IMG/VR virus record: IMGVR_UViG_2541047745_000004
Location: 1-8,633 of that record
DNA: 8,633 nucleotides
Source: a virus
Lineage: Duplodnaviria > Heunggongvirae > Uroviricota > Caudoviricetes
Reading direction: 5' to 3' (one strand)
Positions 3,444-8,633 of the stretch are shown in pieces. A program made the translations under genes and the position numbers. The notes under the pieces are model-generated. The model saw nothing but the letters and a program-made list of their open reading frames with translations, was not told the origin of the DNA and made no database searches. Each line of letters opens with the position of its first letter. Position 1 is the stretch's first letter.

Positions 3444-3970
3444 TTGCGTAACTCCGATAACTCGTTAAAACGTTCCATAAACATCCCGTAGGCATGGCCT
3501 GGCGACAGTGGAATCACTTTGAACATCTCTGTTGCCGGGATACCTTCCAGTACAGGCCAGAAAGAGCCATCATCAAGCCCGAGATCGCGGCGTTCGGTTG
3601 CCAGCATGATGAGATCGGCATATTTCACGGGCGTGCTCATAACCGGGGGTAACCCGTATTTCTCACGGATTACGGCGTCTATTTTTTCTTCCATCCGTTT
3701 ATAGTCAGGAAGAAGGCGTTTCAGTGGCGCGGGGATGTCCTGACAATACGCTTCTGTTGCATCATGCATTAACGCTTCGAAAGCAAACTCCTGCGGTACC
3801 AGTTGGCTGCAAAGCACCGCATGTTGGGCGACGCTGTAGAAGTGTGAAAGATGTCCTGCAAAGCGACAGATATTTGAAAGGGAAACCGCGATATCGTTAA
3901 TCACGATGTCGTCTTTATTTATCCTGTCATAATAAAAATGCTTCCCGGAAAAAGTTTTAATAAATGACAT
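3434..3970 (-). CDS. yfdR: HD-domain phosphohydrolase, YfdR-like (YfbR/YfdR 5'-nucleotidase family)
   Basis: ORF track gives 3434..3997. ATG at 3970-3968 (MSFIKTFSGKHFYYD...) has GGAG 7 nt upstream. HD signature ...FAGHLSHFYSVAQHAV...LMHDATEAY.... N-terminus and length agree with my recollection of E. coli K-12 CPS-53 YfdR. Confidence 0.8.
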   Translation of the reverse strand: MSFIKTFSGKHFYYDRINKDDIVINDIAVSLSNICRFAGHLSHFYSVAQHAVLCSQLVPQEFAFEALMHDATEAYCQDIPAPLKRLLPDYKRMEEKIDAVIREKYGLPPVMSTPVKYADLIMLATERRDLGLDDGSFWPVLEGIPATEMFKVIPLSPGHAYGMFMERFNELSELRKCA

Positions 3971-4063
3971 TTTGTTCTCCACGTATATGCGCTGCACCGC
4001 GCTGAATTCTGGTAAAAGGAAGCCCTCACCATCCGGTGATTATTGAGTTAATTACGTTTCCAT

Positions 4064-4085
4064 AAATGCCCCCGCAGGGGCATTT
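4064..4085 (-). terminator. intra-operon hairpin between yfdQ and yfdR (attenuator- or terminator-like)
   Basis: Perfect 9-bp inverted repeat AAATGCCCC (4064-4072) / GGGGCATTT (4077-4085) with a 4-nt loop, 13 nt downstream of the yfdQ stop. A/T flanks on both sides but no long U-tract. Confidence 0.35.
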
Positions 4086-4097
4086 GCAGTAATGAAA

Positions 4098-4987: not shown

Positions 4988-5350
4988 TTAATGACCTGCT
5001 GCGCGTAGTTTTCCGTCAGGTTCACCGGCAAGAGTCAGTAATTGTCCCTGGTCTTCCTGCAGAATAGTCAGACGACCACCGCGATTGACATACATCGGCG
5101 TTTCGGTGGTGTCTTCTTCGGAAATTTTCCCGCGGTTAGTCGGTCGAACATATGAGAGTTTGTGTTTGATTTTTACACGGTTCTCATCAAATGGTTCGAT
5201 TTCCAGGTTGAGTGAGACCTTACCTTTGGTTTTCGTGTTCATCACACCGGAAGCGACTTCACTGAGAACTGCGCCGATTTTGGTTTCAAATACGCCGCCG
5301 TCCAGCTCCCCGATAAATGCCTGCACATCAGTACTGCGTTCGCTAGCCAT
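4988..5350 (-). CDS. first early-left gene, hypothetical 120-aa protein (positional equivalent of yfdP)
   Basis: ORF track gives 4988..5668 (226 aa), but the extra N-terminal 106 codons are R/P/G-rich junk-like sequence inside the GC-rich region. ATG at 5350-5348 (MASERSTDVQ...) has GAGGAG 7 nt upstream. Confidence 0.6.
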   Translation of the reverse strand: MASERSTDVQAFIGELDGGVFETKIGAVLSEVASGVMNTKTKGKVSLNLEIEPFDENRVKIKHKLSYVRPTNRGKISEEDTTETPMYVNRGGRLTILQEDQGQLLTLAGEPDGKLRAAGH

Positions 5351-5818
5351 TTTGCTGCTCCTCATCATATCGACCCTGCAAGGTCGGTTGGTTTCTCCAC
5401 AAAACAGAGAAGAACACCTGCGGTGGCAGCCGCCCGGATGGATTGGGTTATGAGCCCGTCGTCCGGTGATGCTCTTCTCTGTTTTGTAAAAAGAGCGGTA
5501 CCAGCCGGAAGCAAGGGTACAAGCTGGTACCGCCAGGACTACACACAGCATAAAGTTGTGGTGCCGGGTGCCTCCCGGTGCCTGGCGAAGGTTGCACACC
5601 AGGCGGGTGGGTATCCACAGAAGGTCGACTGTCAGCCTCAACCTTAACCCGCGTGCGCTGAGCCGCATTCACCACAACGCTAAGGATTCTCTCTGGTTGA
5701 AAATACTTAGCTGTTATGTGCCTGCTTTTAGCCACATCAGGCGAGGTGGGCCTGGTTATTCCCCAACAACAAGGATTCGGCTAATCTGGATGACTCTGTT
5801 CTTAGAGGGGATAATTAA
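5351..5818. other. GC-rich, ORF-free, highly self-complementary intergenic element (candidate structured RNA or regulatory leader)
   Basis: About 58-60% GC in sampled stretches. Only low-complexity junk-like ORFs. Multiple inverted repeats: 5399-5415 vs 5471-5487, 5495-5505 vs 5523-5533, hairpin 5559-5581, 5588-5594 vs 5639-5645. Function not established. Confidence 0.4.
5399..5487. repeat. long inverted repeat (15 contiguous bp of 17-nt arms) with 55-nt spacer
   Basis: ACAAAACAGAGAAGAAC (5399-5415) versus GCTCTTCTCTGTTTTGT (5471-5487). The reverse complement of the right arm is ACAAAACAGAGAAGAGC, giving one mismatch. Confidence 0.8.
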
Positions 5819-6646: not shown

Positions 6647-7339
6647 TTAATTATGTCTCTTAAGGGTTTGCGACTGACTGATTAAGACCTTTCCAAAGAC
6701 CATGAATCGGTGTTCGTTTTCGCTAGTAATTCCCCATTCACGGTAAATCTGGTTATCAGAAATCACCAGCAGTTTGTCAGGAATCATTTGAAGTCTTTTA
6801 ACGTATATTTTGTCATCAAAACCAAAGACATATATACCATCACCATCAAACTGATTGATGCTGACATCAACGAAGATGAGATCTCCTGGCTCAATGGTTG
6901 GACACATACTGTCCCCACGAACGTTGATAACTTTGATGTGATTGGCTGGTCGTCCGCCGAACATTGATACAGCATTATCAGTTCTGTATTCGATGGCATG
7001 AATCACATCAATGACATCACCGCCCTGGATAAGGCCATTTCCCGCACTGGCACTGATATCCAGCATTTCAATACGGAACACATCCTTCACCTGCGCAACA
7101 TCCTCATCATTACTGTTTTTATATACAGTATTACTTTTGAGGGCAGAGGTAAAGAGATCAGCAATATCAACACCTAAGCTCTTGGCAATATTACTCAGTG
7201 TTTGTTCGGTAAATTGTTTCTGCTTACCCGTTTCTAAGCGCGAGATGTTCGCCGCATCTACTCCTATTGCTTCAGCGAGATCGGCGATTTTCATGTTCTT
7301 CGCTTGGCGAAGTTGTCTGACTCGGTTTCCTATGTTCAT
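6647..7339 (-). CDS. cI: CI-type prophage repressor (N-terminal XRE HTH, C-terminal S24 LexA-like autopeptidase)
   Basis: 230 aa. HTH ...IADLAEAIGVDAANISRLETGK.... Ala-Gly at SASAGNG as candidate autocleavage site. Catalytic Ser in RGDSMCP and Lys in YVKRLQ. Divergent from the cro-like gene. Confidence 0.85.
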   Translation of the reverse strand: MNIGNRVRQLRQAKNMKIADLAEAIGVDAANISRLETGKQKQFTEQTLSNIAKSLGVDIADLFTSALKSNTVYKNSNDEDVAQVKDVFRIEMLDISASAGNGLIQGGDVIDVIHAIEYRTDNAVSMFGGRPANHIKVINVRGDSMCPTIEPGDLIFVDVSINQFDGDGIYVFGFDDKIYVKRLQMIPDKLLVISDNQIYREWGITSENEHRFMVFGKVLISQSQTLKRHN

Positions 7340-7436: not shown

Positions 7437-7697
7437 ATGCAATCACCATTACGAAATGTGCGTAAGGCGCATGGTTTCACTTTGCAGCATGTTGCTGCGG
7501 GTGTTCAAGTCAATCCAGCGACGTTGAGTCGTATTGAGAGGCTGGAACAGATTCCATCTATCGAGCTTGCAGAACGTTTAGCCAATTTTTTTAAGGGTGA
7601 AATCAGCGAAATGCAGATTCTTTATCCGGCACGTTTTCAATCTAGCCAAAACCAGAATGGGTTTAAACCACAGGAACAGGAGGTGAACCGTGGGTAA
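7437..7697 (+). CDS. Cro-like HTH regulator (86 aa)
   Basis: ATG 7437 after GGAGGG. HTH ...FTLQHVAAGVQVNPATLSRIER.... Divergent from cI. Overlaps the next gene by 8 nt. Confidence 0.65.
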   Translation: MQSPLRNVRKAHGFTLQHVAAGVQVNPATLSRIERLEQIPSIELAERLANFFKGEISEMQILYPARFQSSQNQNGFKPQEQEVNRG

Positions 7698-8241
7698 GCA
7701 TCACTGGAAAGTAGACAAACAGCCTGAGTGGTTCGTGAAAGCTGTCAGAAAAACTATCGCAGCGTTGCCTGGGGGTTACGCTGAAGCTGCTGACTGGCTG
7801 GATGTAACAGAGAACGCATTATTTAACCGCCTTCGTGCCGATGGCGATCAGATTTTCCCGCTGGGATGGGCAATGGTTTTACAGCGTGCTGCTGGCACTC
7901 ACTACATTGCGGATGCTGTCGCACAGTCTGCTGGTGGGGTGTTTGTATCGCTTCCTGAAATTGAGGAAGTAGAGAACGCAGATATAAACCAGCGCCTGCT
8001 GGAAGTCATCGAACAGATCGGGAGTTACTCAAAGCAGATTCGTTCGGCAATCGAAGATGGGGTAGTGGAGCCACACGAGCAGACAGCAATTAATGATGAG
8101 TTGTATCTGTCAATTTCGAAGCTCCAGGAGCATGCAGCACTGGTCTACAAAATCTTTTGCGCTCCAGAAAAGAGTGACGCCCGCGAGTGTGCAGCTCCGG
8201 GCGTCGTGGCGTTTTGTGTCTGTGGAGAAACTAACGCATGA
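7690..8241 (+). CDS. CII-like phage regulatory protein (CP76-family-like, tentative), 183 aa
   Basis: GTG 7690 with AGGAGG (7678-7683) 6 nt upstream. Position immediately after cro. Overall resemblance to phage regulatory CII (CP76) family proteins from memory; family assignment unverified. Confidence 0.55.
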   Translation: MGKHHWKVDKQPEWFVKAVRKTIAALPGGYAEAADWLDVTENALFNRLRADGDQIFPLGWAMVLQRAAGTHYIADAVAQSAGGVFVSLPEIEEVENADINQRLLEVIEQIGSYSKQIRSAIEDGVVEPHEQTAINDELYLSISKLQEHAALVYKIFCAPEKSDARECAAPGVVAFCVCGETNA

Positions 8242-8633
8242 ACAGTTTAACGGCAAATAACCGTTTGTCGCAACAGCTGGTGGTCAGCGTCGCTGAACAC
8301 CTGTTGTTACGGCATGAATGCAGATTACCAAATCACCTGGCTGTAAGTAACCACAGAGAACTTTACCTGACTGTGGGGGGCGAGTTGTGCAGGAACTTAA
8401 CCGCTGGTTTCGTGACGGAAGAGGACTTTATGTTCATGTTATTCGTTGGGAGCCAGAAACACAGCGCGTTATCTATCTTCGCAAAGACTACCCGCATGAG
8501 TGCTTTAGTCCTTTGTGGAAATTCAGGCGTGATTTTGTTGAGTGTGAAGGACCACCAGCACATTGATTCTGCCATTCCGGGACGTTACACTGTTCAGGCA
8601 CCTTATAAAGCGGGTGCCGGGATTGGCGTCCTG
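8238..8633 (+). CDS. hypothetical protein, open at window end; possibly frameshifted at a G6 tract (see findings)
   Basis: ATG 8238 overlaps the TGA of the CII-like gene (ATGA). The frame has no stop to position 8633, which is why the ORF track omits it. The first 47 codons look protein-like and the remainder looks less convincing. Product unknown. Confidence 0.45.
   Translation, partial: MNSLTANNRLSQQLVVSVAEHLLLRHECRLPNHLAVSNHRELYLTVGGELCRNLTAGFVTEEDFMFMLFVGSQKHSALSIFAKTTRMSALVLCGNSGVILLSVKDHQHIDSAIPGRYTVQAPYKAGAGIGVL

Follow-up and report, generated by a model that had tools for sequence, protein, structure and literature searches.

The run of six guanines at positions 8375–8380 of the window, the 8,633-nucleotide stretch of viral DNA analysed here, lies at the junction of what are very probably two genes, overlapping but each with its own initiation site, in a lambdoid prophage of the SfV/e14 type, a reading drawn from comparison of the sequence with its relatives. 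The long frame opening at ATG 8238 (frame 0) would be translationally coupled to the upstream ymfL gene through ATGA and would encode an N-terminal domain of about 50 codons, and a DUF4222 gene would be made independently from GTG 8387 off its own ribosome-binding site. The G6 run would serve twice, contributing to the Val-Gly-Gly codons that close the N-domain and acting as the Shine-Dalgarno sequence of DUF4222. As expected of a nested pair, both ORFs are conserved, each has its own start, and stops are avoided beyond chance. Two overlapping genes, both real, were absent from the candidates in the first-pass annotation of this stretch, whose observation is confirmed and whose interpretation is only partly supported.

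Inspection of the sequence bore out the layout originally described. ATG 8238 overlaps the upstream TGA (8239–8241) as ATGA; frame 0, which reads MNSLTANNRLSQQLVVSVAEHLLLRHECRLPNHLAVSNHRELYLTVGGELCRN..., is stop-free through 8633, the window end; the −1 frame contains a protein-like ORF, ...GGRVVQELNRWFRDGRGLYVHVIRWEPETQRVIYLRKDYPHECFSPLWKFRRDFVECEGPPAH, that terminates at TGA 8564–8566; and the G run spans precisely six positions, such that one further G fuses the halves into a 109-aa ORF. The homopolymer per se is statistically ordinary (shuffling predicts 1.78 occurrences of GGGGGG, and the window has one), and it is the two-frame arrangement that exceeds chance. The upstream gene, initially termed CII-like, is annotated as ymfL in near-identical E. 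coli genomes. Features of the locus are collected in Table 1.

Table 1. Features at the ymfL–DUF4222–isrK junction of the window.
Feature	Position	Strand	Basis
ymfL ("CII-like" gene of the first-pass annotation)	7690..8241	+	Pfam Phage_CP76 55 bits; NCBIfam YmfL equivalog 170 bits
GGAGA Shine-Dalgarno of the frame-0 ORF, within the ymfL 3′ end	8224..8228	+	Motif kept among loci
Frame-0 N-terminal domain (YmfM-family N-domain, ~49 aa)	8238..8386	+	HMM, codon positions, stand-alone relatives
G6 run: probable DUF4222 Shine-Dalgarno and part of frame-0 Val-Gly-Gly (GTG GGG GGC)	8375..8380	+	
DUF4222 / RgdR-family gene of 59 aa, starting at GTG, nested in the −1 frame of the long ORF	8387..8566	+	Pfam PF13973
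Frame-0 tail overlapping DUF4222	8388..8566	+	Stop-free, protein sequence not conserved
Putative isrK-like sRNA promoter: −35 TTGATT 8563–8568, 17-nt spacer, −10 TACACT 8586–8591	8563..8591	+	By eye
IsrK-type sRNA gene, first 36 nt (5′), cut by the window end	8598..8633	+	Rfam isrK 31.9 bits

The suggestion that the second frame might be coincidental is rejected outright by the conserved DUF4222 domain that it encodes. A Pfam profile search matched PF13973 (DUF4222) to the alternative-frame protein at 51.1 bits against a cut-off of 27, with profile positions 4–51 of 53 aligned to residues 3–52 of the 59-aa product, that is, the whole domain. Homologues of about 59 aa with an identical start form 33 clusters. 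A start codon and a strong Shine-Dalgarno sequence are kept in all 34 loci (median duplex energy −9.4 kcal/mol versus a background median of −2.4), which, with the domain match, upholds the earlier impression of a genuine protein. Furthermore, pairwise differences at codon positions 1, 2 and 3 (0.19, 0.13 and 0.48) indicate that the DUF4222 frame is under strong purifying selection. The AlphaFold model is a confident small beta-barrel (pLDDT 85); searched with Foldseek, it returned only generic small beta-barrels (KOW, Tudor, SH3; E ≥ 0.07), from which no functional inference was drawn, and the NCBIfam search gave no model matching either the DUF4222 ORF or the frame-0 ORF. Together, these comparisons point to a complete DUF4222 domain gene, a homologue of RgdR, of predicted regulator type.

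The first 47 or so codons of the long frame, previously judged plausible as protein, likewise appear to be coding. An HMM constructed from 21 type-A N-domains, with the window left out, scored the window N-domain at 27.9 bits and controls at no more than 0.3. The N-domain also exists as a stand-alone gene in Yersinia phage YeP2 (53 aa), where its stop forms ATGA with the DUF4222 start, and in a Morganella phage; in both it ends where DUF4222 begins. In all three N-domain subtypes the third positions of frame 0 are the most variable, and the constraint is only moderate (ratio of position 3 to position 2, ~1.5). Initiation signals are similarly preserved: GGAGA (−6.4 kcal/mol with the 16S anti-Shine-Dalgarno sequence; background median −2.4) is found ahead of the frame-0 ATG in 31 of 34 loci, one further locus has GGGAGA instead (−8.2 kcal/mol), and the ATG lies at the ymfL stop or within 8 nt of it in 28/34. 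In databases the frame-0 ORF family comprises 435 clusters, nearly all of 108–114 aa, and structure prediction renders its product unstructured, with a model too poor to use (pLDDT 38). Profile and codon-position evidence places the first ~50 codons of frame 0 in a conserved family to which the N-terminal half of YmfM from K-12 also belongs.

The present layout probably arose by loss of a stop codon. In distant relatives the N-domain ORF terminates where DUF4222 starts (ATGA); the enterobacterial clade has probably lost this stop (TGA to TGC), and in the window Cys51 (TGC, 8388–8390) occupies the position of the YeP2 TGA. Frame 0 thereafter continues through DUF4222 in the +1 phase and, in most relatives, ends 9 nt short of the ATG that opens the next (replication) gene. 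In the window lineage, an IsrK/C4 sRNA and antirepressor module has probably been inserted directly after the DUF4222 stop, and frame 0 enters it rather than stopping. The case would accordingly exemplify a stop-loss route to gene nesting.

The G6 run has the properties of a ribosome-binding site. Its duplex with the 16S anti-Shine-Dalgarno sequence reaches −9.3 kcal/mol, a strength matched at only 1.5% of background positions, it ends about 5–6 nt before GTG 8387, and its aligned counterparts are GGGAG (L010) and GTGGGG (YeP2). Counting the Gs in relatives, a check that the first-pass annotation had proposed, revealed a nearly uniform tract: exactly G6 in no fewer than 840 of the 991 E. coli records, G5 in none, and G7 in about six (one exact match and a clade of five). 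G6 is also identical in the isolated phages SfV, cdtI and mEp460 and in Stx phages. G7 arose at least twice, in strain 720632 and in a clade carrying a Q2R SNP (2014C-3011, three SMN cattle strains and OkiPb01679), and these natural alleles encode exactly the 109-aa fusion predicted for one extra G (cluster P0068, with 19 members on 44 contigs). All 38 loci, moreover, share the frame offset, and most of them have no G run beside the DUF4222 start; type A loci have a G5 run ~25 nt upstream of that start. On this comparative evidence, G6 appears to be the normal state and the Shine-Dalgarno sequence of DUF4222, not an error or a frameshift switch.

These observations bear directly on the explanations originally put forward for the tract. 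That one added G yields a single ORF had suggested an indel introduced in sequencing or assembly, or else a pseudogene left by a frameshift in an ancestral 109-aa gene. Population and comparative data have already refuted this reading, to which we assign a negligible probability, as G6 is shared by no fewer than 840 complete genomes and by isolated phages, the offset is common to 38 loci across genera, and distant relatives carry two genes and no fusion. Programmed −1 frameshifting on G GGG GGC (8375–8381), by which the 109-aa N-domain–DUF4222 fusion would be made regularly, is very unlikely. The heptamer fits X XXY YYZ in frame 0, as a formal match only, a −1 slip on the run would enter the DUF4222 frame, and other genes, herpesvirus thymidine kinase among them, are documented to show low-level slippage on runs of G (Atkins et al. 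2016, PMC5009743); our search of the literature on G-rich frameshift heptamers found only a general remark on such low-level slippage. However, the heptamer is limited to the SfV-type lineage, e14-type, type A and type C loci lack it at the junction yet keep the frame offset, and folding of 8382–8460 and 8340–8420 gave no stimulatory structure (z = −1.1 and +0.9 versus shuffles). DUF4222 has its own start and Shine-Dalgarno sequence in every locus, YeP2 and the Morganella phage encode the two domains in separate genes, and in-frame fusions in databases are rare indel variants whose junctions fall at differing positions. A frameshift fusion would carry the junction peptide ...LTVGGRVVQELNR..., and under the nested-gene model no junction peptide ...TVGGRVVQELNR... 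would be expected. Slipped-strand phase variation, with G6 (long ORF plus separate DUF4222) alternating with G7 (109-aa fusion, downstream ORF disconnected), derives some support from the existence and repeated origin of G7 alleles, including the 19 members of P0068; nevertheless, there are two independent G7 events only and no G5, six Gs are short for a contingency locus, and in most relatives the DUF4222 start has no G run beside it. The allele of the G7 clade is, in addition, stable across isolates of different laboratories, the opposite of frequent switching, and we consider phase variation highly improbable.

With two nested genes as the preferred reading, we turn to the part of frame 0 that overlaps DUF4222. 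It is stop-free in 38 enterobacterial loci from many genera. Under synonymous resampling of DUF4222, the probability that frame 0 would be open was 0.041 for the window (median 0.039), yet 34 of 34 unique sequences, each with P ~0.04, are open. All seven synonymously saturated lineages (4-fold-site identity ≤0.5) are open as well, with a joint probability near 1e-10 if independent, an order-of-magnitude figure only because the lineages are related by descent. Control DUF4222 genes that are not nested have 2–7 stops in the corresponding frame. Codon choice within DUF4222 follows the same pattern: at-risk Val and Leu codons before A are exclusively NTY, and Arg following CTG is never AGR. The rare codons ATA and TTA create a conserved frame-0 stop 9 nt 5′ of the next ATG, and the Ile at that position is ATA in 23/23 sequences; a stop at this distance is present in ~30 of the 34 loci, whatever the position of the DUF4222 stop. 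Frame 0 of the window has no such stop, and the near-identical SfV ORF extends to 278 codons.

Openness is maintained without conservation of the encoded protein, in agreement with the first-pass description of this part of the long frame as un-protein-like. DUF4222 third positions, which are frame-0 second positions, differ at 0.48, versus 0.57 in ymfL, and within the overlap purifying selection on amino acids is detected in the DUF4222 frame only. The same lack of amino-acid constraint, together with the low predicted structure of the frame-0 product and the premature tail stops in a few database variants (P0148, P0237 and P0245), is what a functionless read-through would produce, namely tolerated junk after loss of the N-domain stop, open by descent. 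We regard this as unlikely: synonymous sites are saturated between lineages and still no stop occurs in the 34 unique sequences, codon bias falls precisely at the at-risk codons, and rare codons make the conserved stop. The sequence pattern is instead that of a tail kept stop-free by selection and not conserved as protein. From the geometry of the locus, its role may lie in translational coupling, with ribosomes passing along it from ymfL to the following gene, a logic that is not directly transferable to the window lineage because frame 0 has no nearby stop there.

Beyond the DUF4222 stop, the window enters what appears to be an sRNA module. The Rfam isrK match inside the window (31.9 bits, E = 4e-5; gathering threshold 50) includes the 36 of 77 model positions that are present; in the near-identical loci L001 and L002, isrK is full-length (63.7–64.2 bits) and C4 scores 79.8–82.3 bits, both above gathering. 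Full-length isrK (62–67 bits) and C4 (75–84 bits) were found in L001, L002, L045 and L011, and the near-identical loci place the C4 antisense RNA directly past the window end. A terminator hairpin with a T-run is located at 3966–3989 of L002, and a Rha/antirepressor-type ORF comes after isrK/C4 in relatives; frame 0 of the window lineage crosses sRNA genes and an intrinsic terminator. A promoter scan of 8100–8633 returned no site at the threshold of the tool. By eye, we noted a candidate isrK promoter weaker than that threshold, with 8 of 12 consensus positions and a −35 element overlapping the DUF4222 stop; its location at 8563–8591 suits the Rfam isrK start at 8598 and suggests that it may drive the sRNA.

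The same region accounts for the "Ash" annotation. Phage_ASH (PF10554) matches aa 117–210 of SfV orf37 at 67 bits, a segment that coincides with isrK, C4 and the terminator, and codon-position differences across it are flat (0.276/0.266/0.317), with no protein-coding signature. The possibility that the long ORF is a single genuine "Ash" protein of 278 aa was considered; for the part beyond 8566, the Rfam matches, the internal terminator and the flat codon-position profile led us to reject it. Frame 0 after 8566 is stop-free in all four of its diverged variants, which have two or three indels in multiples of 3. The "Ash family protein" that Pfam and PGAP report here looks like a translation of sRNA genes.

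Annotation of the locus is divided. The curated K-12 reference annotates ymfM, and the NCBI pipeline annotates DUF4222 in other MG1655 assemblies and in thousands of E. coli genomes; for the SfV type, NCBI records list either DUF4222 with a truncated "ash" or "Rha" protein or one long ORF. The e14-type locus occurs in 2009 of 5426 complete E. coli genomes and the SfV-type junction in 988, and the module is also present in Stx-converting, Shigella serotype-converting and Klebsiella phages. YmfM carries the annotation "cell division inhibitor YmfM" and has been identified as SfiC, a division inhibitor induced by the SOS response and long sought after (Ansari et al., bioRxiv 10.1101/2020.11.19.390815). 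The cloned ymfM ORF also contains DUF4222 codons 1–53 with their own AAGGAG-TTG start, so the ymfM clone and deletion in the literature each involve both genes, and filamentation might belong to DUF4222 or need it. The words "frameshift" and "stop codon" are absent from the preprint, which does not assign filamentation to one frame; the 2018 screen paper gives no fragment boundaries separating the two frames; and our literature search found no description of the ymfM/DUF4222 overlap. Since both frames are maintained, the "ymfM" clone and deletion experiments are not yet assignable to one product. A tentative reading, which we hold as possible rather than probable, is that YmfM/SfiC is half a real domain and half unconstrained out-of-frame read-through, that the nested, unannotated and strongly conserved RgdR-family gene causes filamentation or is required for it, and that the tail only couples ymfL to the replication gene.

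Among known systems, the characterised DUF4222 member is RgdR (ECs1581) of the EHEC O157:H7 cryptic prophage CP-933C/Sp7, which was purified and mutationally tested (PMC3378721). RgdR shares PF13973 with the window protein (82 and 51 bits, respectively), and the two are 41% identical over 34 aa (BLASTP, E = 2e-9). In both RgdR and relatives of the window locus, the small prophage gene lies immediately 5′ of, and overlaps, a replication gene, which is the primase in Sp7 and an O-like or HTH_36 gene in the relatives. RgdR differs in its length, 99 aa with N- and C-terminal extensions compared with 59 aa, and in its setting, a P4-like element in which it is not nested (7 stops in the +1 frame). 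Where RgdR has the RGD motif important for T3S activation, the window protein has ELN in a by-eye alignment; this ELN directly precedes the conserved (W/I)(F/Y)RD.

YmfM (b1148) of the K-12 prophage e14 is positioned like frame 0, its ATG overlapping the ymfL stop as ATGA, and is offset from DUF4222 by the same frame. The two N-domains are homologous, that of YmfM scoring 18 bits with the type-A HMM, although the subtypes differ and identity to the window is 27%. At 112 codons, the e14 ORF ends 9 nt short of the replication gene, whereas that of the window runs into IsrK/C4.

The order of isrK/C4 and antirepressor is comparable to that of isrK-orf45-anrP in Salmonella Gifsy-1 and of c4-icd-ant in the immI regions of P1 and P7 (PMC4825925). 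Unlike in those modules, the upstream ORF here reads through in frame, the window contains the first 36 nt, and the module is annotated as protein ("Ash family", "Rha family").

As for nesting itself, a comparable case is Rz1 of phage lambda, which is nested in the +1 frame of Rz, both being conserved as proteins over the overlap. The present pair resembles Rz/Rz1 in that a small gene with its own start lies within the other frame of a longer ORF and the arrangement is conserved across related phages. It departs from Rz/Rz1 in two respects: DUF4222 alone appears to be conserved as protein, the outer ORF being merely open, and in most relatives the nested gene extends past the stop of the outer ORF.

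The DNA comes from an SfV/e14-type lambdoid prophage of E. coli, of which the window is the immunity and early region; positions 7690-8633 share 99.3% identity with many E. coli chromosomes and 98.7% with Shigella phage SfV. On sequence checking, the layout described in the first-pass annotation proved correct: the ATG at 8238 and the ymfL stop share an ATGA, the frame opened there (frame 0) is stop-free up to the window end, the G run lies at 8375-8380, and the -1 frame reads ...GGRVVQELNRWF...PPAH before a stop at 8564-8566. Its interpretation of the G6 junction as a frameshift or an error was not supported; the tract is an unexceptional sequence element that supplies both a Shine-Dalgarno site and Gly codons where the genes of a conserved nested pair meet.

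Features of the immunity and early region, in window coordinates
Feature	Position	Strand	Basis or remark
cI-like repressor	6647-7339	minus	
cro-like gene	7437-7697		
ymfL ("CII-like" in the first-pass annotation)	7690-8241		Pfam Phage_CP76, 55 bits; NCBIfam YmfL equivalog, 170 bits
DUF4222 gene, 59 aa	8387-8566		GTG start; Pfam DUF4222, 51.1 bits (cut-off 27), essentially the whole profile
sRNA module	8563-8633		continues past the window; L002 (near-identical locus) 3909-4097
Putative promoter TTGATT-17-TACACT	within 8563-8633		read by eye; overlaps the DUF4222 stop
IsrK-type sRNA, first 36 nt	8598-8633		Rfam; truncated by the window end

Gene models elsewhere in the region differ between sources. 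The cro-like gene is 86 aa long in PGAP, where it overlaps ymfL by 8 nt, and 66 aa in phage SfV, where it starts ~9 nt downstream of the PGAP start and ends ~50 nt earlier. On the minus strand, PGAP calls a frameshifted hypothetical pseudogene at 5365-5675 in a near-identical genome (L001 676-986), and a 226-aa ORF of the window (4988-5668) covers that region plus yfdP.

The -1 frame is a real gene. The first pass had found it protein-like, and both the DUF4222 profile match and the constraint across codon positions bear this out. Pairwise differences among 34 unique DUF4222 sequences were 0.19, 0.13 and 0.48 at codon positions 1, 2 and 3, respectively, a pattern that we read as the signature of strong purifying selection. 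Homologues from Escherichia, Salmonella, Citrobacter, Kosakonia and others nearly all measure 57-70 aa and begin at the same residue, and in near-identical genomes NCBI lists the ORF as a gene of its own. Furthermore, AlphaFold modelled the protein confidently as a small beta-barrel (pLDDT 85), for which the fold matches were generic KOW, Tudor or SH3-like only.

Frame 0 is real too. The ORF occurs in 38 loci spanning at least a dozen enterobacterial genera, where it begins at the ymfL stop or shortly past it with a conserved GGAGA upstream; the K-12 e14 copy, 112 aa long, carries the annotation ymfM ("cell division inhibitor YmfM"). Its first ~50-60 codons fall into three related subtypes with common motifs, in each of which third positions are the most variable (0.21/0.20/0.29, 0.23/0.26/0.40 and 0.18/0.23/0.34). 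The ~47 opening codons judged plausible in the first pass belong to this conserved N-domain, scoring 27.9 bits against an HMM of 21 type-A N-domains from which the window was left out; other-frame and reversed controls reached 0.3 bits or less. A profile search returned 435 protein clusters, nearly all of 108-114 aa, unnamed and with no Pfam domain, and the product is predicted to be unstructured. In Yersinia phage YeP2 (MK733260.1; L047 1010-1171), an unannotated 53-aa N-domain ORF (60.8 bits) lies between a ymfL-like gene and DUF4222, its TGA overlapping the DUF4222 ATG as ATGA, and in Morganella phage IME1369_02 the N-domain has its own annotated gene of 66 aa, which extends 8 nt into DUF4222. 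The halves proposed for fusion are therefore two separate, coupled genes in distant relatives. The window's Cys51 codon, TGC (8388-8390), sits at the exact position of the YeP2 TGA. In clusters P0114 (78 aa, 22 members) and P0119, deletions have taken out most of Rha along with DUF4222 and the sRNA module, so that the N-domain continues in frame into the final ~30 residues of the long Rha-type ORF.

Beyond the N-domain, the overlap is kept by selection, as an open frame only. Frame 0 is open across DUF4222 in all 34 unique sequences; when synonymous DUF4222 codons were resampled using the codon usage of neighbouring ymfL genes, the median probability of an open frame was 0.039 (0.041 for the window). 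Seven lineages with 4-fold-site identity of 50% or less, near saturation, are all open, for which the joint probability is ~1e-10 assuming independence. Codon choice reveals how the frame is held open. Val and Leu codons preceding an A-starting codon (columns 4, 18 and 28) are exclusively NTY, with 0 purines in 101 codons; other 4-fold sites use all four bases, and Arg after CTG or ATG is never AGR. In non-nested DUF4222 genes (YeP2, Morganella, EKP1, phiNP and RgdR), stops in the frame-0 phase number 2-7. Frame-0 second positions fall on DUF4222 third positions, whose variability comes close to that in ymfL (0.48 versus 0.57), and the frame-0 tail is S/T/A-rich and unalignable. Its stop arises where ATA, TTA or CTA precedes a codon beginning with G or A; in that column, Ile is ATA in 23 of 23 sequences. 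Moreover, this stop falls exactly 9 nt before the next gene's ATG in ~30 of 34 loci, whether DUF4222 overlaps that gene by 11, 17, 26, 44 or 92 nt; exceptions include the Salmonella locus L010 (2 nt) and the Rha-type locus L011 (ATGA overlap). The tail might thus serve to hand ribosomes on from ymfL to the gene that follows. In the Phytobacter sp. V91 locus (L023 1501-1521), a stop interrupts DUF4222 at codon 7 and the frame-0 ORF (113 aa) is intact, the sole locus of 38 in which the inner rather than the outer gene is broken; this stop could be a sequencing error.

The G run itself is the Shine-Dalgarno site of DUF4222. The 18 nt preceding the start pair with the 16S anti-Shine-Dalgarno at -9.3 kcal/mol in the window, a strength reached at only 1.5% of background positions, through a duplex formed by the G run and ending 5 nt before the GTG. 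Across 34 loci the median was -9.4 kcal/mol, against -2.4 for background. The run aligns with GGGAG in the Salmonella locus and GTGGGG in YeP2; read in frame 0, it codes for a conserved Val-Gly at the N-domain end.

A G6 run is unremarkable in frequency (1 in the window versus 1.78 from shuffles), and a sequencing error or pseudogene is contradicted by the 76-nt junction, of which at least 840 of 991 E. coli records hold an exact G6 copy and none a G5 copy. The prediction that one extra G would yield a 109-aa fusion holds in natural G7 alleles: the junction is exact with G7 in one of those records, strain 720632, five more G7 records share a common Q2R SNP (2014C-3011, three SMN cattle strains and OkiPb01679), two loci read directly encode the fusion, and database cluster P0068 contains it with 19 members. 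These alleles represent two independent, stably inherited events and not a phase-variation switch. Programmed frameshifting gains a formal match of G GGG GGC to X XXY YYZ, but folding around the G run revealed no stimulatory structure, the site is not conserved and DUF4222 initiates by itself; database entries with other in-frame fusions reflect sporadic indels whose positions differ. Adventitious slippage could still occur at a very low level, as in a comparison case for G runs (PMC5009743). In 720632, the expected start ATG of the Rha/antirepressor domain (KEAAI-M-ATIP) is replaced by ATA (L043 ~2205), and this start loss together with the G7 frameshift suggests a decaying module.

The nested pair, a dual-coding arrangement previously undescribed, also exposes an annotation conflict around a published gene. 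NC_000913.3 lists ymfM and omits DUF4222 at the e14 locus (L003 3823-4181; 1203822-1204180 of that record), and PGAP, in other MG1655 assemblies such as NZ_CP032667.1 and ~2000 genomes, lists DUF4222 and omits ymfM, the DNA being identical in MG1655. Among 5426 complete E. coli genomes, 2009 carry the e14-type locus. For SfV-type loci, PGAP gives either DUF4222 plus an "ash"/"Rha" protein from an internal ATG (window 8496) or a single long ORF from the ATGA, and phage records mostly annotate the long frame alone. The study that identified ymfM as SfiC expressed the annotated ORF from pBAD24 and used recombineering to delete it (bioRxiv 10.1101/2020.11.19.390815). That clone takes in codons 1-53 of DUF4222 together with an AAGGAG-TTG start of their own; since it carries both frames, the SfiC activity may belong to either product.

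In two near-identical loci (L001 and L002) and in the Rha-type loci L045 and L011, full-length isrK (62-67 bits) and a C4 antisense RNA (75-84 bits) come straight after DUF4222, which places C4 immediately beyond the end of the window. A terminator-like hairpin with a T6 run marks the end of isrK. The Pfam Phage_ASH match (PF10554) in SfV orf37, aa 117-210, coincides exactly with these RNA genes, codon-position differences there are flat (0.276/0.266/0.317), and an intrinsic terminator lies within it. The "Ash family protein" of PGAP and SfV orf37 beyond 8566 are therefore probably not ordinary coding sequence, and the Phage_ASH family may be RNA genes read as protein. Frame 0 is stop-free through this stretch, with indels in multiples of three in four diverged variants.

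The module is of the isrK-orf45-antirepressor or P1 c4-icd-ant kind (PMC4825925). The DUF4222 family has a characterised member in RgdR (ECs1581) of EHEC, a prophage regulator of LEE and motility that has been purified and probed by point mutations (PMC3378721; review PMC10877973). Unlike the window protein, RgdR carries an RGD motif; it scores 82 bits against the Pfam model that the window protein also matches, and the two align with E = 2e-9.
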